A program made the position numbers and the translations under genes. The notes under the pieces were generated by a model, which ran no database searches, was not told the origin of the DNA, and saw nothing but the letters and a program-made list of their open reading frames with translations. A stretch of DNA of 64,000 nt. Origin: Deltaproteobacteria bacterium. GTDB lineage: Bacteria; Desulfobacterota; GWC2-55-46; JADFVP01. Within the stretch, counting starts at the first letter, position 1. Each line of letters starts with the position of its first letter. The DNA is taken from assembly GCA_029262515.1 (NCBI GenBank), contig JAJCZH010000005.1, positions 31,793-95,792 of the forward strand, given 5' to 3'. Positions 3,284 through 54,454 of this stretch are shown piece by piece.

Positions 3284-4378
3284 ATGTCAAAATGCACATA
3301 CAACCTGACCTTTGAGGTTTACGGTTACTCGAAAGAGCTGTCGGACCTCACAACATTGATCAAGAAAGCACTGTCAAAGTATTTGTCTCGCTGCTTAATT
3401 ATCGTTAAGAAGACTTTTAAAGAATGGCGCAAGTGTCACATTTCTGGGTCGATAGAAGATGTGGATGCATGCCATATGCTATTCAACAAGGATTGCTTGC
3501 CACATCTCCACGTTGTACGCAGTCTCGACGAAGCAGGAGACAATATCTGTTCTCGAGCCTACCCCATCTTGTCACGAGCTGAACAACTGCTTCGAGGGTT
3601 CATAAATGGGTGATGACGGATGTAGCGGGGGCCAACTGGTGAGGAAGTTGGTCGCCTTCTAACGTGGATGAAAAGGCAACTGTGCGCAAATCGTCGTGCG
3701 CGAATGACCACCAGATTGAGTTAGTAGACTTCACTGATCTTATGACTCTGTTATTTGCAGAGATTCAAGACTGGCTCGGCGATCATATCCTGTCTGCAAA
3801 AGATCTTGCAGATATTCTTTGTGGGACAGACGACCTTGGCGCGTGCAGGGCTCAAGTTGCCAAATGACTCACAAAACGGTCGGCGTGGAATGACACCTTC
3901 TTGCCGTATATTATGGATGCCGATGCATGGGGCAAGCTGAAGAATGAGCTTGTCGCCATCATAATACCGATCCGACGCAGAGTAATGCACCATCGACCAG
4001 TACACCTCTATCACCTTGCGAAGGTGATAGGACACACCTGTAGTTTGCGCGAGTACCTCGGACATAGCCGACAGGCTATTGATGAGAAACAGCGCAACGA
4101 ACTCCAAGATATAAACAAGGAGATTACGCAGGCTCTACAAAGCTCAGTACCGAGACTTTATAGTGACCTCTTCGGTTCAACCGAGTGGGTGCAATCTCTG
4201 GCTAAGCAACAAGAGGCTTTCCGAAAGAGCATTTCACCGTTTGCTGAGATACAGAAGGAATGGAAGAAGCAAATGAACCCTTGGCTCGAAATGGAGGAGC
4301 AGATGCGAAAGCAAACGTAACCATTCAGACGTCTTCAGGCCCAATGGAAGAAGGATGTTGAGAAGCTAACAAAATGAT
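3284..4378 (+). pseudogene. disrupted Swt1-like HEPN-domain gene cassette
   Basis: The fragments join into one protein: AYPILSRAEQLLRGFIN / frameshift / VMTDVAGANW*G / LVDFTDL / K*LTKRSAWNDTF / IPIRRRVMHHRP (Rx4H). One frameshift near 3610 and in-frame stops near 3640, 3865 and 4318. Confidence 0.65.
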
Positions 4379-5283: not shown

Positions 5284-5333
5284 GTGGATGGCCCGCTATA
5301 CGGGTTGCGTGCGCGGGTATAAGTTACTACATA

Positions 5334-5557
5334 AGGCCGGTATATAAAAAAGGCTGGTATATAAAAATCTCTATGGACGACAAGGAAAAATGGATTCCCG
5401 AGAAGCTTATCACGTAGAATTCGACCCGCGCTTTACAACCAAGCCGAAGGGTAGCGGCCCTATGTCTTGCCAGCTCATACTCGATTGCCAAGAAGCACGG
5501 AGGTTACATCGATGTAACCTCAAAGGTTGGCGTTGGAACTACATTCACGACATACTC
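5334..5557 (+). pseudogene. histidine kinase HATPase_c domain remnant
   Basis: Broken reading of ..ISMDDK..IPEKLI..FDP..FTTKPKGSG..LASSYSIAKKHGGYIDVTSKVGVGTTFT, with stops and frameshifts. Resembles the G-box region of the kinase at 19294. Confidence 0.7.
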
Positions 5558-5646
5558 AATGGGTAAGGTACCGTGCCACGGTTCTCCATACCTGCGCGCC
5601 AAGCGCTCTGTAACCACACCCCTATGCAGAAGATCCCGGCAGAAAT

Positions 5647-5692
5647 AAGCTGAAGCCCACAGGAATTATACCTGTGGGCTTCAGCAGTTTTA
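5647..5692. terminator. hairpin terminator downstream of the PEP-CTERM remnant
   Basis: Inverted repeat gctgaagcccacagg / cctgtgggcttcagc. Confidence 0.75.
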
Positions 5693-5705
5693 AGGTTCGG
5701 GGCTC

Positions 5706-5898
5706 TTACCTCTTGAGTTTTCTTCTCACATAACCAAGCCCTGCCTGCCCGCTTCCTATAAGCAGGAGAATGGAGGATTCGGGAACCGGGTTGGTAGGCG
5801 CGATACGGATCAGCGCCAGTGCCGGCGCTGATAGCTCCCTCGAACGTGTAGTGCAACGGAGCTGCCAATGCGCCACTCGACATGATAAAAATTACCAT
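5706..5898 (-). pseudogene. internally deleted PEP-CTERM protein gene
   Basis: Signal-peptide-like start (MVIFIMSSGALAAPLHYTFEG) joined out of frame to NPVPESSILLLIGSGQAGLGYVRRKLKR* (5706-5792). Confidence 0.75.
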
Positions 5899-6306
5899 TT
5901 AAACAATGGATACCGTCCTTTTTTATATTAATACTAGAAGTAACAATGATGTTGTGTAGTTATACGTACAATAATTACGCCAAACATGTATCAGAGCCGT
6001 AACTAGCCGATTTATTTAGATAAAATGGCTGCCTGCCAAAACAGGAGACAGCAGGATAGCTTAGAAAGTGTAAAAAAAGATCGATATATAGTGTGTTATA
6101 GTCCGAATTAAGTGTATTGGTCTCAATGTGTTGTAGGTGATGGTCAGTGTATGGATTCTTTACAGCATTTAATACTTTGCCACTTAAAGGAGCTGATTAA
6201 AGATACTCTTTTCTTACTTAAAACTCGTCTGCTCATATAAAATTTATTGTGTGCAGTTATTTTGCCGGATATATTGTTTATCATTAAATCGTATTCAACG
6301 CTCTTC

Positions 6307-6335
6307 TTGACACCTTCTGCCTACGGGTGTAAATT
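6307..6335 (+). promoter_or_regulatory. sigma-70 promoter
   Basis: TTGACA-N17-TAAATT upstream of the amidotransferase gene. Confidence 0.6.
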
Positions 6336-6455
6336 TAACGTATGGCAACAGGTGTGGTTATCGGATCAAAATAGTCACTTGTATGGTTTAGTGCTATAGC
6401 AGAGTTCTATTCAGGAGTAACCTGTTTTATTATAACCGGAAAAGGAGGTGCCGCT

Positions 6456-7325
6456 ATCTGCCGTTTTGTGCTCTACCTCGGAACCGAGATAACAATCAGC
6501 TCTCTGGTGACGGAACCGACCCATTCTATAATTCACCAGTCTTATAACAGCAAAGAGGGTGAGGAGCCGCTAAACGGCGATGGTTTCGGCCTTGCGTGGT
6601 ATGCTCCCCATCTGCCGGAAGAGCCGGCTCTTTTCAAGGCCGTTACTCCCGCATGGAACAACATGAACCTCTTAAGCCTCGCTCGCGTAACAAAGAGCAG
6701 CTGCATACTGGCGCATGTTCGCGCCGCGACTCCGGGGCTTCCCGTAATTCAGCTCAACTGTCACCCGTTTGTTCGCGGTTCAATTTCGTTTATGCATAAC
6801 GGCAAGGTGGGAGGTTTTGCGAAGATACGCAGACGTATTATAGAGCGCCTCTCGGACGCGGCATTCGAGTCGATCGAGGGCTCTACGGACTCCGAGTATG
6901 TCTTTGCGTTATTTCTCGACCAGTACTCGGCTCAGGACCAGGGACTTGCCAAGAGTGAGAGACTTGCCCGGGCCTTGGGCGCGACTATAAAAGAGGTGAA
7001 CTCCATAGTAGACGAGGCCGGAATAGAGGATGCGTCGTTTCTGAACCTTGCGGTCGCCGACGGCACTTCGGCAGTCGTCTGCCGCTACGTAAGTTGCGGG
7101 TCCAAGAGGGCAAATACCCTCTATATCCATACCGGTTCGAGTTTCTCCTGTGTAGACGGTCTCTACACAATGGCGGAGCCGGACAAGGGTACCCACGCCG
7201 TTGTGGTGGCCTCTGAGCCGCTGGGAAGCAATTCGGAATGGACGGTCGTTCCGGAGAGCAGCATGGTCGTGATAGAATCTGGCACAGGTGTCGTGATGCG
7301 CCCTATTCAGGCCCCGCCAGCCTAA
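6456..7325 (+). CDS. class II glutamine amidotransferase (EgtC/DUG3-like Ntn hydrolase); apparent ATC start codon
   Basis: Motifs NGDGFGLAWY, LAHVRAAT, NCHPF, FMHNG, GSTDSE and VASEPL. The N-terminal CRFVLYLG is preceded in frame by ATC at 6456, with AAGGAGG upstream. Confidence 0.85.
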   Translation: MCRFVLYLGTEITISSLVTEPTHSIIHQSYNSKEGEEPLNGDGFGLAWYAPHLPEEPALFKAVTPAWNNMNLLSLARVTKSSCILAHVRAATPGLPVIQLNCHPFVRGSISFMHNGKVGGFAKIRRRIIERLSDAAFESIEGSTDSEYVFALFLDQYSAQDQGLAKSERLARALGATIKEVNSIVDEAGIEDASFLNLAVADGTSAVVCRYVSCGSKRANTLYIHTGSSFSCVDGLYTMAEPDKGTHAVVVASEPLGSNSEWTVVPESSMVVIESGTGVVMRPIQAPPA

Positions 7326-44766: not shown

Positions 44767-46569
44767 ATGTTTCTGCCAACGACTAAAGCTGAACTCGAAG
44801 TTCTTGGTTGGCATACTTTGGATATAGTGCTCGTAACCGGAGACAGTTATATAGACTCTCCCTTTTCCGGGGTTGCCGTAATAGGCCACGTTCTTCTAGA
44901 TGCCGGATACAGGGTCGGTATTATAGGCCAGCCTGCTCTCGATACTCCGCAAGATATAAACCGTCTCGGTACTCCGGCTCTTTTCTGGGGCGTCACCGGC
45001 GGCTGTATAGACTCTATGGTCGCAAACCGTACGGCATCTGGCCGCAAACGGAAGCGGGACGACTATACGCCGGGCGGCGAGAATACTCTTCGGCCCGATC
45101 GTGCAACCATTCAGTATACGAACCTTATAAGAAGGTATAACAAAGAGGCCGTCCGTCCTATCGTGCTCGGCGGTATAGAGGCGAGTCTGCGACGAATGGC
45201 CCATTACGACGCATGGACCGATTCCATACGCCGTTCGGTTCTCTTTGATGCGAAGGCCGACTACCTGCTTTACGGCATGGCCGAGCGAAGCGTCGTCGAA
45301 CTTGCCGACTCTATTAAAGAAGGTAGAGAACCGAAGGACGTGCGCGGGCTCTGTTACATCTCCAAAGAGCTGCCAAAGGATTCAGTTGAGCTGCCGCCGT
45401 ACGCCGAATGCGCCGAGCGGTCGGCAGATGGGTTTAGGGCCTTTAGAGATGCATTTAAACTCTTTTACGGCAGTAACGACCCGGCCACAGCCCGAAGGCT
45501 TGCACAGCTCCACGACACCCGTTACCTTATCCAGAACCCTCCGGCGCGTTACTTAACCGAAACCGAGCTCGACTCTGTCTACGCCCTTGCCTACGAGCGA
45601 GATCTCCATCCGTACTATTTAAAGTTTGGAAGCGTTAAGGCCCTTGAGACCATCCGCTTCTCTATCTCTACTCACCGGGGCTGTTATGGAGAGTGCGGTT
45701 TTTGCGCCATTGCCGTGCACGAAGGGCGCCGGGTCAGGAGTAGAAGCAGGGCCTCTATAGTGGCCGAGGCGGTCAAGATATCCGAACACCCGCTCTTCAA
45801 GGGCAGGATCCCCGATGTCGGCGGCCCCACGGCCAATATGTACGCAAGCGGATGCGAGAGGATGGAGAAGAAGGGTTGCTGTCCTTCCAAGAGCTGCCTG
45901 ACGCCGAAGGTCTGTCCTGTTCTCAAGTTCGGCCACGCTGAGCAGGTTCAATTATTGCGGGAGCTTCGTGAGCTCAAAGGTATTAAGAAGGTGGTTGTTG
46001 CGTCCGGGCTTCGTCACGATATGATACTTGCGGATAAGAGTGCGGGAAGGCAGTATTTGAAGGAGCTGGTTACGTTCCATGTCTCCGGGCAGTTGAAGAT
46101 AGCCCCTGAGCACTCGGAGCCGAACGTGCTTAAGGTTATGGGTAAGGATGGATGCGATCGCGCCGCGTTACTTAAGTTTAAAGAGCTTTTTTACAAGTTT
46201 ACCAAAGAGGCGGGCCTCAAGCAGTTTCTCTCTTACTATCTTATGGCTGCTCATCCGGGTTCCACTCTTGAAGATATGATTCGATTGAGGAAGTTCGCAC
46301 TTGCTGAGCTGGACACCCTGCCCGAACAGGTTCAGCTCTTTACCCCTACACCTTCGACGATCTCCACCCTCGTATACTGGACAGGGTTCGACCCTGTCAC
46401 GGCTACTCCCTGTTTCGTGGAGAAGAGTCCAAAGGGCAGGGAGGCGCAGAAAGAGGCCGTGACAGGCGCCGATAAGACTCTGAAGCAGAATATGGGTTAT
46501 ACGCGCAAAAGGAGTGGAGTTAAGGTCCGTAAGGGTAACACAGGTGCTTACAAGGGAGGAAGAAGGTAA
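44767..46569 (+). CDS. ygiQ: YgiQ/UPF0313 family radical SAM protein
   Basis: Motifs MFLPTT..LVTGDSYID.P, GGIEASLRR.AHYD, HRGCYGECGFC, GGPTANMY and LKIAPEH. Confidence 0.93.
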   Translation: MFLPTTKAELEVLGWHTLDIVLVTGDSYIDSPFSGVAVIGHVLLDAGYRVGIIGQPALDTPQDINRLGTPALFWGVTGGCIDSMVANRTASGRKRKRDDYTPGGENTLRPDRATIQYTNLIRRYNKEAVRPIVLGGIEASLRRMAHYDAWTDSIRRSVLFDAKADYLLYGMAERSVVELADSIKEGREPKDVRGLCYISKELPKDSVELPPYAECAERSADGFRAFRDAFKLFYGSNDPATARRLAQLHDTRYLIQNPPARYLTETELDSVYALAYERDLHPYYLKFGSVKALETIRFSISTHRGCYGECGFCAIAVHEGRRVRSRSRASIVAEAVKISEHPLFKGRIPDVGGPTANMYASGCERMEKKGCCPSKSCLTPKVCPVLKFGHAEQVQLLRELRELKGIKKVVVASGLRHDMILADKSAGRQYLKELVTFHVSGQLKIAPEHSEPNVLKVMGKDGCDRAALLKFKELFYKFTKEAGLKQFLSYYLMAAHPGSTLEDMIRLRKFALAELDTLPEQVQLFTPTPSTISTLVYWTGFDPVTATPCFVEKSPKGREAQKEAVTGADKTLKQNMGYTRKRSGVKVRKGNTGAYKGGRR

Positions 46570-46588: not shown

Positions 46589-48850
46589 TCAAGAAGCCTT
46601 GTCGTTCAATTTCGTCTTGCTGTCGATACTCTCTACCTTTTTTAGATCCGGTATGTCGGTATTTGTCGTGTAACCATCTACCGTAAGCAGAGAGGTAACC
46701 GAGACCCTGTTTCTGCCGGTAGTCTTTGAACGGTAGAGGGCTATATCGACCTGCCGCATAAGTTCGTCTTTATCAACGCCGTCTTCAGGGTACGTAGAGA
46801 CACCGAGGCTTACCGTTGTGCGCTCCTTTACGCCGTTCATGTTGGTAGCGGTATCGGTTTCTACAATGCTGCGAATCTTCTCGGCCAGGGCGTGGGCGCC
46901 GTTTTTGTCGGTATTGGGCAGAATAACAACAAACTCCTCTCCGCCGTACCTTGCAACTATGTCAGACTCCCTTACGGTCTTCAGGAAGAGGTCCGAGACC
47001 TTCTGCATAATGTTATCGCCCTGTTTATGGCCGTAGAGGTCGTTAAAGCGTTTAAAGTGATCGATATCGATCATTATGATGCTCAAAGGCTGGGTAAAGC
47101 GCGTGGCAAAAGCGAACTGTGTTGGCAGGGCCTCTTCAAGGAAACGGCGGTTGTAGAGTCCCGTTAACTGGTCCCGTATCGCCATTGTACGGTGGGCCTT
47201 TACCAGGCGCATGCTCGATATGGCAGGGGCAACGGTACTGATGTAGGAGTTGATCATAAAGTTGCACTCGGTCGTGAAGAAGTTTTTCTGCAGGCTTACC
47301 AGGTGTATCCATCCGACCGTAGAGCCGCCGGTGGAGATCGGCGCGCACATATAACTTCCGTGCTCCTGAGCAACCTCCTGGTTCGGGCACCGGTACTCGG
47401 TCTCGACATCGTTTACAATAAAATCCTGCCCCGACCTGACCGCCCTGCACTGACGGTTGCTATGTATAGACTTCATATCGCGGCATGACGGAGTGGATAA
47501 CGTGGCTTCACCCTCGTCGCTGCCGTATGTCGCAATCACTTCTGCCAGATCCTCGCTGTTATTGAGGCTGATCACGACAATCTTGTCTATATTGAAACTT
47601 TTGGAGAGGTACCTGATAAGTATGGAGTAGCACTCCGCCTCGGAGATTTCGCCTCCTACCAGCTTTCCGAACTTCACAAGGTCCTGAAGGCGTTGAAGTT
47701 CAATGTCCAGTTCCTCTTGTACCATGTGCAGTTTTCTCGACATCATTATGAAGGAGCGGGAGAGGTCTCCGAGTTCGTCCTTTTCCTTAATCGCCAGGGC
47801 TTCTATTTTCTCTTGTGCCTCTTTATTGGTAATGTTCGAGCCGTCGGTGTACTCCTGGCTGATCCGTGCCATTGCATTTGAGAAGACCTGCAGGCGTGTC
47901 ACGATCATCTTCCTCGTTACTATGACGATGACGACTCCGAGCGGTATTGAGCTTAGAAAGAGCAGCAGCGCAACCCTGTTGAGCAGAGTCATGGTATCGG
48001 CCATCAACACTGCCTTGCTTGTGCTGAGCATGTACCGTACGCCTAATGGCGCATGCGTGCTGTAAGAGATAACCTCACCGTCATTGTTATCGACAACGAC
48101 CCCTGTCTCCCCGCCTATTAATGCACCGAAGACCTCGCCATGCTCTTTGGCCGTATCTGTCAGCACCGTGTTCGAGTCCCTGGTATTGAACAGGACCGTA
48201 CCCTCCCAGGTAGTAACGTAGGCATCGTCAACAATACCCTTTATCAGCAGCGAGTTGAAAATATGGTTCAGTACGTCCGGGTTGAGGGTCATGGTCAGAA
48301 CCCCGAGAGTCCTCTGTTCGTACGATACCGCCATACCCCAGTCCATGGCGAGATAATTTTCTCCTTTTCTGAAAGTGGGCTGGCTCAGTTTAAAGGCCGG
48401 GGCCTTGATTACCTCGGAGTAGTAAGCCCTGTTATTGTGGTCCTTATACTCTTTACGTATCTCCTGGTTTTTAATAAGTACCTCTTCGATACCGTTATTA
48501 TCGATAAACCTTATGTACTCGATTAGTTCGGGACGGGAGACGGATGATGTCAGGAAGAGTTCTTCGAGGGCCGCCTTCTTCTGAGGTTCTGCCTTTAACC
48601 GGCCAGAGGCCTTGGCTTCGAGGTATTCGATAAAGACCCTGTGCTTGTGAAGGTATGTTAAGATCGACGACCATTCCTTAACCAGCTGGTCGAGCTGGGA
48701 AGAGACTACTTTGCTGAGTTGGATATTTGCCTCTTTAGCCTCTTTTATCGTCACATTCCTCTGAATGTAGTAGTATGCGACAAGCGTTATCGTGGAGACG
48801 ATAAAGAGGGTGCCAAATATCGTGATGAGAATCTTGCTCTGTAGCTTCAC
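46589..48850 (-). CDS. diguanylate cyclase (Cache-HAMP-GAF-GGDEF)
   Basis: Motifs RDQLTGLYNRR, DIDHFKRFND.YGH..GD, RESD and RYGGEEF. Sigma-28-like TCAG-N15-CCCGATAT at 48930-48956. Confidence 0.93.
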   Translation of the reverse strand: MKLQSKILITIFGTLFIVSTITLVAYYYIQRNVTIKEAKEANIQLSKVVSSQLDQLVKEWSSILTYLHKHRVFIEYLEAKASGRLKAEPQKKAALEELFLTSSVSRPELIEYIRFIDNNGIEEVLIKNQEIRKEYKDHNNRAYYSEVIKAPAFKLSQPTFRKGENYLAMDWGMAVSYEQRTLGVLTMTLNPDVLNHIFNSLLIKGIVDDAYVTTWEGTVLFNTRDSNTVLTDTAKEHGEVFGALIGGETGVVVDNNDGEVISYSTHAPLGVRYMLSTSKAVLMADTMTLLNRVALLLFLSSIPLGVVIVIVTRKMIVTRLQVFSNAMARISQEYTDGSNITNKEAQEKIEALAIKEKDELGDLSRSFIMMSRKLHMVQEELDIELQRLQDLVKFGKLVGGEISEAECYSILIRYLSKSFNIDKIVVISLNNSEDLAEVIATYGSDEGEATLSTPSCRDMKSIHSNRQCRAVRSGQDFIVNDVETEYRCPNQEVAQEHGSYMCAPISTGGSTVGWIHLVSLQKNFFTTECNFMINSYISTVAPAISSMRLVKAHRTMAIRDQLTGLYNRRFLEEALPTQFAFATRFTQPLSIIMIDIDHFKRFNDLYGHKQGDNIMQKVSDLFLKTVRESDIVARYGGEEFVVILPNTDKNGAHALAEKIRSIVETDTATNMNGVKERTTVSLGVSTYPEDGVDKDELMRQVDIALYRSKTTGRNRVSVTSLLTVDGYTTNTDIPDLKKVESIDSKTKLNDKAS

Positions 48851-50117: not shown

Positions 50118-51257
50118 TCAAGAACCGAGGCCGTTGATACAGATTAAATATACTATTGCGGAGATGCCCGCTGCAACAGGAAATGTTACTGCCCAGGCAG
50201 TAAGCATCTCGTAGATAATACGCCTGTTAATTCCTATGGCATTGCGTTTGAGTCCTATACCTATAATAGAGCTGCTGCTGACATGCGTTGTAGAGACCGG
50301 CATTCCCAATCTGGAGGCGAAGACTACTAGTAGAGCCGTGCAGAGGTTGGCTATAACGGAGTCATTTCTGTCCATATCCGTTATCTTTTCCGACAACGTC
50401 TCTGTTACTCTTGTTCCGTAAAGGTATCCGCCAAGCCCCATCGCTACAATGACCATAAGAAAGAGCAACCGCCTGTCGATGTCGGTAAAGGCGGCTGATG
50501 CGAACATTATCGCCACGATCTTTGGGGTATCGTTCATCCCGCGGGCAAAGGAGATCAGCCCGCTTGAGAACCAATGGGTAATGTCATTGAAGTCGAGCCT
50601 TGTTGGCGAATCGAGTCTCTCGTCACACTCCGATATCTCAGCCGCCTGAACCGCAAGGGTTTCGGCTTTGAAGGATGTTATAGCGGTAGTTCCAACTGCC
50701 GGCCCACATCTCAGAACTTTTGTCGGCCCGAAGCAGAGGCAGTATTCAGAAAGCCTCGAAAGAATGGCGTAACCGGTTCTATAGACAAACAGTGTTAAGA
50801 GCAGAGCAAGAAAGGGACTTAGCAAGAGCGGGGCCATTATCTTGTAGCCGAGTGTTCCCCATACTATCTTATCAGGTCCCATGGTCAGCAGTACCGGGCC
50901 GCAGACGGCACCGACAATAGAGTGCGTGGTTGAGACCGGCATGCCGTAACGTGTGGCGAACAAGACCCATAAAAAGACACCGGAGCCGACGGCTATGGAG
51001 AAACTGGTTGTCAGTTCTACATCGCTTGCAATTAGTCCTGCGCTGAAAACCTTCAATAAAGCGGATGCGACGAAGAAGGAGAGCAAACCTCCGGCAACTG
51101 TCCATACCGTTCCCCAAAGGAGCGCTACCCGGTACTTGCAGAGGCCGCTGCCGACAAGAGTGGCCACGCCCTTTGATATGTCATTGGTGCCGTTAAAGAA
51201 GGCGACCAGCACTACTACCAATATTAAAAGGTATTCAATCACAGTAGGCGGCTCCAA
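50118..51257 (-). CDS. PiT family inorganic anion transporter with a Cys-containing central loop
   Basis: Motifs NGTNDISKGVATL, MPVSTTH (twice) and FARGMNDTPK. Loop YCLC..LRCG..SEC. Confidence 0.9.
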   Translation of the reverse strand: MEPPTVIEYLLILVVVLVAFFNGTNDISKGVATLVGSGLCKYRVALLWGTVWTVAGGLLSFFVASALLKVFSAGLIASDVELTTSFSIAVGSGVFLWVLFATRYGMPVSTTHSIVGAVCGPVLLTMGPDKIVWGTLGYKIMAPLLLSPFLALLLTLFVYRTGYAILSRLSEYCLCFGPTKVLRCGPAVGTTAITSFKAETLAVQAAEISECDERLDSPTRLDFNDITHWFSSGLISFARGMNDTPKIVAIMFASAAFTDIDRRLLFLMVIVAMGLGGYLYGTRVTETLSEKITDMDRNDSVIANLCTALLVVFASRLGMPVSTTHVSSSSIIGIGLKRNAIGINRRIIYEMLTAWAVTFPVAAGISAIVYLICINGLGS

Positions 51258-51483
51258 AACCTGAATTTATGTACCATATGAAATCAGCTATATGATAGTG
51301 AAACAAAAACTTAGAAAACTTGAACCTGTTCTTCTTTTCTGCGGCCTGCCCCTGAAGTAACCGGTAGGTAAAGATATCCGTCTATACACTGAACCCTTCC
51401 CCCCTCCCCCGGGTGTTGCAGGGGAGAGGTGCTGCAAGACGTGGTATTTGTTCTGTTATGATACAGAGGTTAAGTAGCTATCT

Positions 51484-52140
51484 TTAACGGTTACCGCACG
51501 GATTTTTGGTGCTGCACGGATTTTTTACTGCACACGGGTTATTGGTGCTGCATGGATTATTTATCGCACACGGGTTTTTGGTGCCGCATGGGTTTGCAAC
51601 ACCGGTGGAGTTGTTGCTTACATATGCGGCAAGCGAGGTCATCTTTTGAGAGTTCCAGCCAAGTGGTTTGCCTTTCATTGGGTTGACCATGCAGAAGTTG
51701 ATCATCTGGTCGAGAGTAAGTACGTCGTCAGCCATCTTTATGTACTTGGGATACGGCTTGGAGTTGAGGTTGGAGGTTTTGCCCTTTGGGTGGCATGTTG
51801 AGCAAGACAGGCCGCTTTTACCGAGCGTGCTATCTACCCAGAGGCGCTCACCACGGTCTACGACTTTACCGTAGTCCTTCAGGGGATAATTTCTTATCGG
51901 TTTGTTCTTCATCTTTGCGCTGCACGGGTTGCTCATACCGCAGGGGTTACTCATCTTGGCTCCGCACGGGTTGATTATGCCACAGGGGTTGCTACTCTTG
52001 GTACTACAGGGATTCATGCCGCATGGATTCATCTTCTGTCCGGCAGTTGCGTCCTGAACGCTTGCAACCGTTAACGTCAACGCAATAGTTAACAGCATTG
52101 CAGCGGCCAGAGAGAACCCGGCTTTTGTTAAAACCCTCAT
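51484..52140 (-). CDS. secreted monoheme c-type cytochrome (SoxA/TsdA-like domain) flanked by 12 Asn-Pro-Cys repeats
   Basis: Signal peptide, CSTCH, and YPKY...TLDQMINFCMVNPMKGKPL...MTSLAAY. Six NPC units on each side. AAGGAGG RBS. Confidence 0.85.
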   Translation of the reverse strand: MRVLTKAGFSLAAAMLLTIALTLTVASVQDATAGQKMNPCGMNPCSTKSSNPCGIINPCGAKMSNPCGMSNPCSAKMKNKPIRNYPLKDYGKVVDRGERLWVDSTLGKSGLSCSTCHPKGKTSNLNSKPYPKYIKMADDVLTLDQMINFCMVNPMKGKPLGWNSQKMTSLAAYVSNNSTGVANPCGTKNPCAINNPCSTNNPCAVKNPCSTKNPCGNR

Positions 52141-52236
52141 TATATCCTCCTTACATTAGTGTTAAAGACTCGATCGGTTATACTTCTATTATTCTAAATA
52201 AGCGCAAAGGCCAGGAACGTGGCCCTTGTTTACAGC

Positions 52237-52602
52237 CTATAGCGTGATTATCTGATAACCTTCACCCACCAGAGCGGCGATACTGGGGTGTCCCATATAC
52301 TCGTCAGTAACCGGTAGTCCGGCGGCCTTAACCTCTTCTGCGTTACCTTCAAATGCACATATACAGTATTGGCAGACTCCTGAGATTGCCCCGGACTCTT
52401 TTACTTCTGCGAAGATATGACCGAGCGGATGGCCGGGTTTGGATAACACTTCCACCCATTTTGTGCCGCCACCGTCGAAGAAGAGTTTGGCAATATGTCC
52501 CGCTTCGATGAGTTCTTTTGTGTAGAGCAGCGAGTGAAGGGCTCTGCCCATTGCGTCATGCGTTCCGGGTGCCGCATGCAGTATGATGGCAATCTTTTGC
52601 AT
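52237..52602 (-). CDS. DsrE/DsrF-like protein
   Basis: KIAIIL..GRALHSLLY..L..G..AKLFFDGGG..GVCQYC..GHPSIAALVGEGYQIITL. The ORF is open upstream to 52743/52812, so the start is uncertain. Confidence 0.8.
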   Translation of the reverse strand: MQKIAIILHAAPGTHDAMGRALHSLLYTKELIEAGHIAKLFFDGGGTKWVEVLSKPGHPLGHIFAEVKESGAISGVCQYCICAFEGNAEEVKAAGLPVTDEYMGHPSIAALVGEGYQIITL

Positions 52603-52818
52603 TATTCTCTTTCCATGACTCTCTTGTTCATTTCCAGACCTATTTCTGTTTGAGGTTAAGCCTGTGTCCTCTCTTGAATTACTGTTCCTGGCGGAATAGT
52701 TTGTGTCGATTGAGCGGAAGATTTCTCCTTTTCTTATTCTCATGCAGAATCCCTCCATAGACGAAAGGAGTCCGGTGCGCCATGGCGAACCTTTGTCTAT
52801 GCCTTTGATCATGAGTTC

Positions 52819-52873: not shown

Positions 52874-53545
52874 TTATGAAAAAACTTTTTCCGTCAGGGT
52901 ATAGTTGCGGCCGTCGACCTGCAGGCTGCCCTCTTTCTTTAATTTGTTGATTTCAAGCGTCACTGTCTCGCGCGAAGAGCCGATCAGGTTTGCGATATCC
53001 TGGTGCGTCAGTTTCAGCTTGATCCTGAGACCTTCTTGAGACTGCTGCCCGTACTTGGCAGCAAGGTCGCTGAAGAGCATCTGCAGGCGCGAGCGTACGT
53101 CGCGAAAGATCAGGTTCTCAAGGCGGCTTTCGATACGACGGAGCCTGAAACCGATAAAGCGCGTTATGGCGAGAGAGAATCCGGGGTTCTTGCCGATAAA
53201 GTCTTCAAACTCCTGCCTGTTAATCGCGCAGATCATGGAGTCCTCAATGGCCTCGGCGCTCGTCTCCCTCTCTTCTTCCCCGGCAATGGAGAGTTCTCCG
53301 AAGATATCACCCGGTTCTAGCAACTCTACCGTAAGTTCCCTGCCGTCGTCACTCAGGCGCGAGAGTTTCACCATACCTTCTTTTAACATATAGATCTTGT
53401 CGGATTTGTCTCCGGCCGTATAGACTCTGTTCTTCTTCTTTATTTCGTCCGTACGCATTATAGAGGCCATTACCTTCATTTCTTTTTCCGGCAGGCCCAT
53501 AAAGAGACTGTTCGTGCTGATATACCAGAGTTTCGTCTTCTGCAT
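52874..53545 (-). CDS. Crp/Fnr family transcriptional regulator
   Basis: Motifs G.VKL...DGRE, PGDIFGE and HTH LTHQDIANLIGSSRETVT. Lacks the FNR Cys cluster. Confidence 0.95.
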   Translation of the reverse strand: MQKTKLWYISTNSLFMGLPEKEMKVMASIMRTDEIKKKNRVYTAGDKSDKIYMLKEGMVKLSRLSDDGRELTVELLEPGDIFGELSIAGEEERETSAEAIEDSMICAINRQEFEDFIGKNPGFSLAITRFIGFRLRRIESRLENLIFRDVRSRLQMLFSDLAAKYGQQSQEGLRIKLKLTHQDIANLIGSSRETVTLEINKLKKEGSLQVDGRNYTLTEKVFS

Positions 53546-53611
53546 CTAGCATCCTTTACTACTTACTCCTTGAGACATTGTGACGTATGAGATCGGTGAT
53601 CGGGCAGACTC

Positions 53612-54454
53612 TTACAGCTCTATCTGTTTTGGGGCCCTCTCGGCCATCGCCTCTATCTGCTCAACGTCTATCTCCGGTGTTGCGGTCAGGAGCTTATTTT
53701 TTGTGAACTCTATATCGAAAAAGTCGTTATCTTTGTGCAGCTCGAACTCTGCTTTGCATGAGTGGCAGTGCACCGTATCTCCGGCCTCTTTATGCCTCGG
53801 TACGGTTATAATAGGACCGCAAGCCGGGCAGCTGAGCATCGGCCTCGACTCGTCGCTGTGGCCGATTACTCCGTTTAGTTTATCAGTATCAAAGAGCCCG
53901 ACCAGAACATCTACAAATCTTTCATCGAACTGAGAGCTGCGATTCTTTTGCAGTATATAAATAGCCTTGGCTGCTTCCATTCCTGCGCGGTACGGTCTTG
54001 TGCTCGTCATCGCATCAAAAGCGTCAGCAATCGAGACTATTAGGGCCGGCATTGATAGGTTCGCTTCAGGGATTTTTTCCGGATAGCCGTGTCCGTCTAC
54101 TCGTTCGTGGTGGTGACCGATGGCGTCGAGTACAAGGGGCGCCAAAGGGTGAGAGATAAGAATCTTACGCCCGGTAACCGGGTGTGCGCGCATTATCTCA
54201 TACTCATCGTCGGTAAGCTTGCCGGGCTTATTGAGTATACTGTCGGGTACCGCGACTTTACCTATGTCATGGATAAGCCCGCCGAGAAAAGCCTTGAAGA
54301 CTTGCTGCTCGCTCAACCCGGAACTCTTTGCGATACGCTCCGCGTACTGGGCTACCCGCCAGACATGGCCGCCTGTGTATGCATCTCTGGCCTCTATTAT
54401 CGCTCCGAAGATCAGTAAGGATTTTAACAGGCCTTTGTCTAGATCTACTTTCAT
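53612..54454 (-). CDS. HD-GYP phosphodiesterase with a C-terminal zinc ribbon
   Basis: Motifs EARDAYTGGH, HDIGK, HHERVDGHGYP, ADAFDAMTSTRPYR and CPACG...CHSC. Confidence 0.92.
   Translation of the reverse strand: MKVDLDKGLLKSLLIFGAIIEARDAYTGGHVWRVAQYAERIAKSSGLSEQQVFKAFLGGLIHDIGKVAVPDSILNKPGKLTDDEYEIMRAHPVTGRKILISHPLAPLVLDAIGHHHERVDGHGYPEKIPEANLSMPALIVSIADAFDAMTSTRPYRAGMEAAKAIYILQKNRSSQFDERFVDVLVGLFDTDKLNGVIGHSDESRPMLSCPACGPIITVPRHKEAGDTVHCHSCKAEFELHKDNDFFDIEFTKNKLLTATPEIDVEQIEAMAERAPKQIEL

Follow-up and report, generated by a model that had tools for sequence, protein, structure and literature searches.

A SoxA/TsdA-type monohaem cytochrome c flanked by Asn-Pro-Cys repeat arrays and its candidate roles

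The window analysed here is a stretch of 64,000 nucleotides from contig JAJCZH010000005.1 of a deltaproteobacterial genome (assembly GCA_029262515.1); all positions without a contig or locus name are counted from its first letter. On the minus strand it encodes a small cytochrome c, termed P0001, in which a single haem domain is flanked by arrays of Asn-Pro-Cys (NPC) units. That P0001 is an exported monohaem cytochrome c of the SoxA/TsdA fold with NPC arrays on both sides is hardly in doubt. NPC-tailed cytochromes represent a widespread uncharacterised family, a variation on the Cys-ligated SoxA-family cytochromes. Beyond its haem fold, P0001 is ordinary in none of its parts.

The cytochrome gene, its haem domain and its family

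The gene and its product are organised as follows (pLDDT, predicted local distance difference test).

51484-52140, minus strand: gene of the NPC-tailed monohaem cytochrome c P0001, 218 amino acids (aa), with 218 relatives at E ≤ 1e-3 and a match to Pfam PF21342
52146-52150, minus strand: ribosome-binding site GGAGG, 6 nt before the ATG, read from the sequence
52042-52140, minus strand: signal-peptide-like N-terminus without lipobox, about residues 1-33, recognised by its hydrophobic sequence and a helix (residues 7-26) in the model
51922-52029, minus strand: N-terminal array of six NPC units, residues 38-73, irregularly spaced, with a 42-nt repeat and a pLDDT of about 48-52
51601-51894, minus strand: SoxA/TsdA-type cytochrome c core, residues 83-180 (Pfam match at residues 96-181, pLDDT 83-96, Foldseek match to SoxA)
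51790-51804, minus strand: haem-binding motif CSTCH, residues 113-117, with C113, C116 and H117 invariant
51691-51693, minus strand: Cys150 of the INFC motif, the probable distal haem ligand, invariant in 40 and in 41 sequences and aligned with the haem-1 Cys of SoxA and with TsdA Cys123
51490-51597, minus strand: C-terminal array of six xNPCxx hexapeptides, residues 182-217, seen in the sequence as a tandem repeat, pLDDT 44-51

Translation starts at an ATG, and the 218 residues contain only one CxxCH motif. The order described in the initial annotation, namely six NPC units behind a signal-like N-terminus, one CxxCH domain and six NPC hexapeptides, is confirmed by the sequence. Twelve regularly spaced thiols had also been claimed. 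This holds for the six C-terminal ones (ANPCGT KNPCAI NNPCST NNPCAV KNPCST KNPCGN), whose cysteines 185, 191, 197, 203, 209 and 215 have an exact spacing of 6, but not for the N-terminal cysteines 40, 45, 53, 59, 67 and 73, which are spaced irregularly. Similarly, the suggested DNA period of 18 bp was recovered by Tandem Repeats Finder at 51494-51595 (5.7 copies, 61% matches), but the same array is better described by a 36-nt period (2.8 copies, 84% matches). For the N-terminal array the program reported a 42-nt repeat in 2.2 copies at 51909-52001.

In the genome of the window, NPC occurs 66 times in 935,952 residues of six-frame open reading frames (ORFs) of at least 150 aa; 29 of these occurrences lie in P0001 and its paralogue (see below) and the remaining 37 are single. 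Per 218 aa, about 0.009 NPC would be expected. The arrays are far beyond chance, and the gene is real and conserved. An AlphaFold model computed with 40 relatives predicts disordered tails, with a pLDDT of 44-52 versus 83-96 for core residues 85-180. Variants in repeat number were not seen in the DNA contigs of a biofilm metagenome (one study), where contigs break inside the N-terminal repeat; a search of sequencing runs listed only this DNA study and no RNA data.

The haem domain was assigned by sequence and by structure. Residues 96-181 match the SoxA/TsdA domain PF21342 with 62.6 bits against a cut-off of 27 (E = 3.4e-17, model positions 1-86 of 88). The SoxA equivalog TIGR04484 of NCBIfam is reached with 59.1 bits against a cut-off of 110, and only its positions 5-94 of 212 are matched. 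The best PDB sequence match is Rhodovulum SoxA (1h31), reached at E = 9.8e-8 by P0001 alone and at 2.9e-14 by the core profile, and Paracoccus SoxA and TsdA are the next solved relatives. A Foldseek search with the model, of which the core is confident, ranks SoxA 1h31_A first (E = 3.3e-4, root-mean-square deviation 1.9 Å over 94 columns), followed by 2c1d_A and then by TsdA entries (4wq7), all with a probability of 1.00. The SoxA/TsdA-like nature of the domain, initially read from a short segment, is thus borne out by the structure prediction that had been proposed as a check.

Among 40 family members, C113, C116, H117, P131, M136, C150 and P154 are invariant, and they are so again in a core alignment of 41 sequences. 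Cys150 lies C-terminal to CSTCH in the segment TLDQMINFCMVNPMKGKPL and is in register, according to HMMER alignments, with the Cys of the SoxA motif MINAC and of the TsdA motif RIGDC, the latter being TsdA Cys123. The available text of Grabarczyk et al. (PMC4423706) describes Cys123 as a haem ligand that forms the catalytic adduct, and Arg109, Arg119 and Ser127 as the residues binding thiosulfate. Because Cys150 aligns with the ligand Cys of SoxA and TsdA, the earlier suggestion that the INFC cysteine is near the haem holds as far as homology shows, and Cys150 is probably the distal ligand of a His/Cys-ligated haem. The surroundings of this cysteine differ. Relative to Cys123, TsdA has Arg119 at -4, Arg109 at -14 and Ser127 at +4; Arg109, Arg119 and Ser127 align to Met136, Met146 and Pro154 of P0001. 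In the 40 family members the first and last of these three P0001 residues do not vary at all, and Met146 is conserved to at least 90%. Since the anion site of TsdA is not conserved, thiosulfate, which the initial annotation had considered as substrate, is unlikely to be one for P0001.

A word-indexed search identified the 218 relatives among 899 candidates. In the best 120 of them, 119 proteins carry at least one NPC and 117 at least two, adding up to 1008 units with Cys spacing modes of 5 and 6 and the consensus K-N-P-C-A/G. The total per relative ranges from 0 to 24, the motif itself being kept. Between 0 and 21 units precede the haem domain and between 0 and 18 follow it; the two numbers are equal in only 21 of the 120 and barely correlate (Spearman 0.17, p = 0.06). 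Therefore, the 6+6 symmetry of P0001, which had been taken as a feature of its design, is incidental. Since a word-indexed search can favour NPC words, a core-only profile (A2, 96 positions, no NPC) was built and run against 1.84 billion cluster representatives. It matched 1011 of them at E ≤ 1e-3; the stricter thresholds of 1e-10 and 1e-30 left 318 and 33, respectively. At least two NPC are present in 84 of the best 150 representatives (by rank band 25 of 33, 27 of 47 and 32 of 70), so the tails are frequent, but not obligatory, in this branch of the SoxA superfamily.

The family is found in Thermodesulfobacteriota and "Deltaproteobacteria" metagenome-assembled genomes (MAGs), Nitrospinota, Nitrospirota, Tectomicrobia and the iron-oxidising Zetaproteobacteria, and it is widespread among lineages of groundwater and sediment. 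Of 201 genomes sampled evenly from the phylum of the window, 17 had a match at E ≤ 1e-10, nine of them strong, and the genome of the window was the only one with two copies. The source databases give the relatives no name more specific than "cytochrome c", "cytochrome c peroxidase" or "hypothetical". A literature search for NPC or Asn-Pro-Cys repeats, or for SoxA/TsdA-like monohaem cysteine-rich proteins, returned only aquaporin-11 and unrelated papers, most subscription journals being outside its coverage.

At locus L015, an ORF call of 531 aa (5296-6891) is a family member with 35 NPC, and a nearly tail-less paralogue with two NPC is encoded at 3385-4374. In the genome of the window, contig C7 encodes at 53348-53752 (minus strand) a third small exported protein, with three xNPC units, a Lys/His-rich tail and no haem motif.

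The pentahaem partner and the solo paralogue

Gene neighbourhoods were compared across 59 loci, comprising 57 public ones, the window and the second copy in the genome of the window. Four of the loci are cut short, and L013, L041 and L064, for which no haem-bearing family ORF was called, are still counted. Directly downstream of the cytochrome gene, 42 of the 59 loci encode a protein of 370-440 aa with five CxxCH motifs: 36 were recognised by the script criterion, five have overlapping ORF calls (L023, L025, L033, L039, L044), and in L004 a haem-less NPC ORF lies in between. Such a haem-less NPC-only ORF adjoins the cytochrome gene in 16 of the 59 loci. In L050 the pentahaem gene is located 3 kb away. 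No pentahaem partner is present in L034, L035, L038, L049, L052, L058, L061, L062 and the window, nine loci whose sequence extends downstream for 1 kb or more. The pentahaem gene was furthermore found in 36 of 55 non-redundant metagenome groups (73 loci, many of them short). Within the phylum sample it was detected, at E ≤ 1e-123, in each of the seven further genomes whose cytochrome match is strong; it was not found in the two examined genomes of this sample with a weaker match. This regular partner had been overlooked in the initial annotation, as had the solo status of P0001 described below.

The partner matches the MtrC-domain and c554 models of Pfam. Its sole NCBIfam match is the ExtKL model NF040886, with 57.6 bits (49 bits in the search of the window's genome), where the cut-off is 250. 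A profile built from 37 partners aligns with MccSep (9wt9) at E = 1.2e-17, spanning all five haems and extending into the beta-sandwich, and with cytochrome c552 (5ze8) at E = 3.9e-15. The AlphaFold model of the partner (pLDDT 80) is nearest to 5ze8 (Foldseek E = 4e-14, TM score 0.52/0.57); the example at L022:8360-9640 has five CxxCH and a C-terminal Ig-like domain with beta strands at residues 266-372. According to the available text of PMC13510729, MccSep is the Geobacter pentahaem selenoprotein ExtKL, a polysulfide and selenite reductase whose activity needs the haem-2 ligand Cys239 and Sec325. ExtKL, c552 and their relatives have been grouped as the "PHC" family, as far as described in PMC11976967, and the Geobacter ext cluster, which includes a rhodanese-like ExtH, has been linked to selenite and tellurite reduction in the parts of PMC5877670 and PMC13510729 that were available.

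Both of these catalytic residues are missing from the partner. Cys239 falls into an insertion without counterpart, and Sec325 aligns to the invariant Tyr299 within a common GH..P..TP motif. The partner family conserves five extra His and no extra Cys, which suggests that all of its haems are bis-His ligated. Thus, the partner looks like an MccSep-type scaffold without the catalytic residues of MccSep itself. Because these are absent, it is plausible that the NPC cytochrome supplies a catalytic His/Cys haem and thiols in trans. A complex prediction for the core of P0001 and the pentahaem protein of the same genome gave a score of 0.00, which counts neither for nor against binding. A Chromatiales MAG (L016:2052-3833) encodes the pentahaem protein as a fusion, with a thioredoxin-like domain (Thioredoxin_7) at the C-terminal end.

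The genome of the window (2.50 Mb, 38 contigs, 98.45% complete) contains a canonical pair elsewhere. A second NPC cytochrome, P0003 (233 aa, 9+8 NPC), is encoded on contig C2 at 105591-106346 (minus strand; L022:9592-10293), directly upstream of a pentahaem gene of the PHC family at 104362-105549 (minus strand; L022:8360-9640). Its identity to P0001 is 74% where the two proteins match and 76% for the core domains. In the window no pentahaem gene was found, and the 226-bp gap downstream of the cytochrome gene (51258-51483) holds no remnant, only noise. P0001 is thus a solo paralogue, the pentahaem partner being retained beside the other copy. A second true solo copy occurs at L065 in genome G162, again with the pentahaem gene on another contig. 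In a tree of 42 core domains, P0001 is nearest to P0003 (76% identity) and to the L001 protein, and no supported clade contains it. At a distance of 14 kb from the canonical pair, C2:89964-90908 (minus strand, locus L018) encodes a second, more distant pentahaem paralogue, which matches the L003 partner at E = 1.1e-20.

Gene neighbourhood and candidate functions

Around P0001, five genes follow each other on one strand in the order Crp regulator, DsrE-like gene, cytochrome gene, PiT transporter and ArsM-like methyltransferase.

52874-53545, minus strand: Crp/Fnr-family regulator, with homologues in 9 of the 59 loci, L065 and 5 of the 55 metagenome groups
52237-52602, minus strand: DsrE-like gene, directly upstream of the cytochrome gene (Pfam DsrE 19.8 bits, cut-off 22.7; the nearest ESM Atlas clusters belong to the DsrE family)
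50118-51257, minus strand: PHO4/PiT-family anion transporter, directly downstream of the cytochrome gene (Pfam PHO4 218.9 bits), at the same position in L003 and L072
49103-50053, minus strand: ArsM-like S-adenosylmethionine (SAM) methyltransferase (NCBIfam NF008823), with homologues in L003, L061, L051 and L072

The DsrE-like ORF runs from 52237 to 52812 and gives 191 aa from its first ATG or 121 aa from Met71. Since the homologue in L003 (61% identical, 122 aa) aligns from Met71, the true start is probably at 52602; a further homologue is present in L072. The ArsM-like gene is the only strong NF008823 match of the genome, and Cys26/27, Cys50, Cys142 and Cys192 of its product have a spacing that would fit the four catalytic cysteines of ArsM. 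The ESM Atlas comparison yielded nothing beyond Pfam, and a crude exact-half-site scan found no common Crp/Fnr-type palindrome upstream of the nine loci with a Crp neighbour.

The cluster is bracketed by an HD-GYP-type phosphodiesterase with a C-terminal zinc ribbon (53612-54454, minus strand) and a Cache-GAF-GGDEF cyclase (46589-48850, minus strand); homologues of the HD-GYP gene stand directly upstream of the cytochrome gene in L027 and L044. A YgiQ-family radical SAM gene (44767-46569, plus strand; TIGR03904, 728 bits) lies 2.5 kb beyond the ArsM-like gene. Another follows the cytochrome-pentahaem pair directly in a Nitrospirae locus (L048:3270-5153, minus strand), which makes 2 of 59 loci, from different phyla.

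Related arsenic-type settings were found at other loci. The 1.55-Mb metagenome contig L072 keeps the order of the window with Crp, DsrE-like, cytochrome, pentahaem, PiT, ArsM, ArsS, a FAD disulfide reductase and DedA. L003 has Crp, cytochrome, pentahaem, PiT, ArsM, the reductase and DedA, with a DsrE-like gene and MerR upstream, the DsrE-like gene standing before Crp. In a Nitrospirae MAG (L061:4829-8089), the gene of an NPC cytochrome (22 NPC) without pentahaem neighbour is inserted between an ArsM-like gene on one side and, on the other, the genes of a peroxidase-like protein of the arsenosugar-associated type (TIGR04169, 196 bits, cut-off 120) and of ArsS (TIGR04167, 348 bits, cut-off 300). 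L051, the same record as L067, comprises a low-molecular-weight-phosphatase-type ArsC-like protein, an ArsM fragment, the permease ArsP and ArsR, then the cytochrome-pentahaem pair, with MerR beyond; in L024, ArsR precedes the pair. The genome of the window itself encodes ArsS above cut-off at another place. Furthermore, its SelD gene (contig C8:239042-239965, minus strand) contains one in-frame TGA, and therefore the organism uses selenocysteine and SelD itself is a selenoprotein.

The pairing of FAD disulfide reductase and DedA/VTT membrane protein recurs downstream of the cytochrome-pentahaem pair (L003:10178-12292, L024:8226-10340, L072:11880-14000). The name MerA was rejected for the reductase of L003 and L024, which is without the C-terminal Cys pair of MerA. 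The c8 member of L048 was likewise rejected as ArsM, being a generic methyltransferase, and the "ArsM" match of L120 (68 bits) was too weak to be counted.

Our best overall explanation, held tentatively and with somewhat less than even confidence, is that the NPC cytochromes are haem-wired thiol arms which handle a thiophilic substrate, an arsenic-like one in the case of the window copy. The 12 tail thiolates would serve as tethered carrier arms that bind this substrate. Between these arms and the reactive Cys150 at the haem, either the substrate itself or a disulfide would be exchanged, in the manner of SoxA and the SoxY arm. A low-potential His/Cys haem would couple the two-electron chemistry of the thiols to one-electron transfer, and electrons would pass to or from the pentahaem partner, which in this genome is encoded only at the locus of the other paralogue. 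The window copy may capture or reduce As(III), thio-arsenic species or a related metalloid while these are still in the periplasm, before they are taken up and methylated. The general part, haem-wired thiol arms of some kind, is slightly favoured over its negation. Arsenic or a metalloid as the substrate of the window copy is a more doubtful proposition, and it is the most likely substrate because of the operon-like setting of Crp, DsrE-like, cytochrome, PiT and ArsM-like genes. For this copy we rank arsenic or metalloid handling first, followed by sulfane sulfur, an oxidant thiol buffer, a passive sponge or scaffold and, last, a RiPP (ribosomally synthesized and post-translationally modified peptide) precursor.

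A bolder version, which we regard as distinctly unlikely, would make P0001 a member of a new periplasmic class of haem-regenerated poly-thiols. Here, the arms would capture arsenic (perhaps also selenium, antimony or thio-arsenic) and reduce it by an ArsC-like thiol cascade, the His/Cys haem and the pentahaem protein would re-reduce the arms from the respiratory chain, and the product would be passed to PiT and ArsM/ArsS and end in organoarsenicals. If true, arsenic would be handled here by a route that has no relation to Ars, Arr or Aio.

Several points weigh against the arsenic-centred explanation. Met136, Met146, Met151 and Met155 around Cys150 are invariant or near-invariant in the 40 family members, and His/Met ligation with a free Cys150 is possible. 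A terminator-like hairpin at 52205-52228, after the stop of the DsrE-like gene and before the cytochrome gene, intervenes and leaves co-transcription with the upstream genes unsupported. The ArsM-like protein reaches 231.4 bits, and its L003 homologue 247.1 bits, against the arsenite methyltransferase cut-off of 263 (NF008823), and neither Acr3 nor ArsB was matched in the 98.45% complete genome. Genes of the ars type occur in just 5 of the 59 genome loci (window, L003, L024, L051, L061). The clusters of the window, L003, L024 and L072 are related to each other, which leaves about three independent lineages, and the ars link is a lead drawn from raw counts. Most loci have other neighbours, such as rhodanese (6 of 59), ResA/TlpA-like redoxins (5) and extracytoplasmic function (ECF) sigma factors (4, two of them with a DUF3379 anti-sigma factor), besides sensor kinases (10), Crp (9), EB_dh/dihaem cytochromes (6), DedA (4), FAD disulfide reductase (3) and DsbD_TM (2). 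P0001 may have arisen by duplication or may be an ortholog of the L003/L072 cluster gene, both being compatible with the tree, and for all family members we infer every functional step.

An alternative is a reactive-sulfur carrier. Here, the arms would hold persulfide or polysulfide as an in-cis analogue of SoxY, the haem and the pentahaem protein would oxidise or reduce sulfur, and the arsenic genes would be mere neighbours. The SoxA/TsdA fold with its aligned ligand Cys fits this, and so does the position of rhodanese, which directly follows the pentahaem gene in 6 of the 59 loci and in 8 of the 55 metagenome groups; MccSep, the closest characterised relative of the partner, is a polysulfide reductase (available text of PMC13510729). 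The DsrE-like gene adjoins P0001, but its product stays below the Pfam cut-off. Furthermore, the thiosulfate-binding Arg109/Arg119/Ser127 of TsdA are Met/Met/Pro here, the partner is devoid of Cys239 and Sec325, and in the genome of the window neither DsrA nor ExtKL was found above cut-off, Sox, Sqr and Psr genes not having been searched for. We consider this explanation unlikely. The swinging carrier arm proposed in the initial annotation gains context from rhodanese, the DsrE-like gene and the MccSep-like partner, and it stays one of several readings.

The tail thiols may also be sacrificial, forming a periplasmic buffer against oxidants or electrophiles that is re-reduced via the haems or a CcdA/ResA-type line. 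The ECF sigma, redoxin and DsbD_TM neighbours listed above speak for it, as do universal stress proteins and AhpD-like proteins near family members, the thioredoxin-like fusion of the L016 pentahaem protein, and a FAD disulfide reductase near the MerA/RclA models (3 of 59 loci, 7 of 55 metagenome groups), which however is without the C-terminal Cys pair of MerA. None of these stress and redox genes is present in the cluster of the window, and neither the strict pairing with the pentahaem cytochrome nor the PiT/ArsM/ArsS setting is explained by a buffer, which we regard as improbable.

Still less probable is a passive sponge or scaffold, in which the tails would chelate Cu(I), Hg, Cd or Zn like a metallothionein or cross-link by disulfides to the envelope or a mineral, and the haem would be an ordinary electron carrier. 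The dense cysteines in disordered tails, the Met-rich pocket around Cys150, zf_CopZ and HMA genes 4-5 kb from the solo copy in L065, MerR regulators in L003, L067 and L100 and the occurrence of the family in iron-oxidising Zetaproteobacteria are consistent with it. In contrast, an invariant Cys where SoxA has its haem ligand, together with a redox partner that is conserved, speaks for a chemical role of the haem. The tails also differ from metallothioneins in that their cysteines stand 5-6 residues apart and form no CxC or CC clusters, and the haem-less NPC-only ORFs in 16 of the 59 loci fit shuttles equally. The metal(loid) sponge of the initial annotation has gained context from the adjoining ars-type genes, and it too stays one reading among several.

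A RiPP-like precursor, with the NPC units as substrates for enzymatic Cys modification, ranks last because no maturase recurs, and it is extremely improbable: the repeats are short, regular and variable and YgiQ genes lie 2.5 kb beyond the ArsM-like gene here and beside the pair in L048, but YgiQ occurs in just these two loci, and no recurrent peptide maturase, protease or exporter adjoins the gene in the 59 loci. Moreover, a cytoplasmic maturase would have to act on its substrate prior to export, and here the repeats stand on either side of a cytochrome that is folded and exported.

Comparison with known systems

Ars proteins bind As(III) by cysteine triads. ArsR, ArsC, ArsM, ArsP and ArsS are represented among the neighbours in the window, L003, L072, L051, L024 and L061, and we know of no Ars protein that is a cytochrome or an NPC-repeat carrier. 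In the literature searched, no description of a periplasmic haem-linked arsenic-binding protein was found. A concrete first candidate for the substrate is suggested by two settings, the solo gene of P0001 next to PiT and ArsM and the ArsM-cytochrome-ArsS cassette of L061.

Metallothioneins are small cytosolic proteins with clustered CxC, CC and CxxC motifs. P0001 shares with them, and with the periplasmic copper-storage proteins, the small size and the many cysteines. Unlike these, its tails are exported, disordered, fused to a haem and spaced by NPC units of 5-6 residues, with neither CxC/CC motifs nor a helical bundle, and no metallothionein model of Pfam matches P0001.

The pentahaem partner resembles MccSep/ExtKL (9wt8, 9wt9) and the PHC protein c552 of T. 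tepidum (5ze8) in its five CxxCH, the N-terminal haem cap, the C-terminal beta-sandwich and the GH..P..TP motif. It differs from MccSep/ExtKL by having no counterpart of Cys239, a Tyr at the position of Sec325 and a score far below the ExtKL cut-off, and it is absent from the window. The NPC cytochromes are thereby paired with a pentahaem cytochrome and not with SoxX or TsdB.

The analysis of this window newly brings out the loss of the TsdA substrate site, the kinship of the partner to MccSep without its catalytic residues, the solo paralogue and the recurrent arsenic-type setting, including the ArsM-cytochrome-ArsS cassette. Should arsenic, selenium or sulfane sulfur prove to be the cargo of the arms, the family would represent an undescribed periplasmic step of element cycling in aquifers, and a natural redox-wired poly-thiol would be at hand that could be used for metalloid capture.

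SoxAX, with its carrier SoxYZ, and TsdA share with P0001 the Pfam domain, the fold and a CxxCH haem with a Cys at the distal-ligand position. To our knowledge, the haems of the SoxA family are the only well-studied case in which a Cys ligand of haem performs covalent sulfur chemistry. The carrier SoxY has a single cysteine in a C-terminal motif, and the NPC arms use another motif. For SoxAX, the reactive ligand Cys is described as handing on a sulfur adduct, the acceptor being a cysteine of the flexible carrier arm (available text of PMC4423706). In contrast to SoxA, P0001 has a single haem domain, by sequence nearest to the N-terminal (haem 1) domain; in contrast to TsdA, it has no second haem domain, and Met/Met/Pro stand at the Arg/Arg/Ser substrate site. 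The difference to SoxYZ lies in the arms, which are fused in cis as 0-24 disordered repeat units, and no SoxY or SoxZ model of Pfam matches P0001. Compared with these systems, the NPC family fuses a SoxA-type module to up to two dozen carrier-like thiols and pairs it with a stripped-down relative of MccSep.

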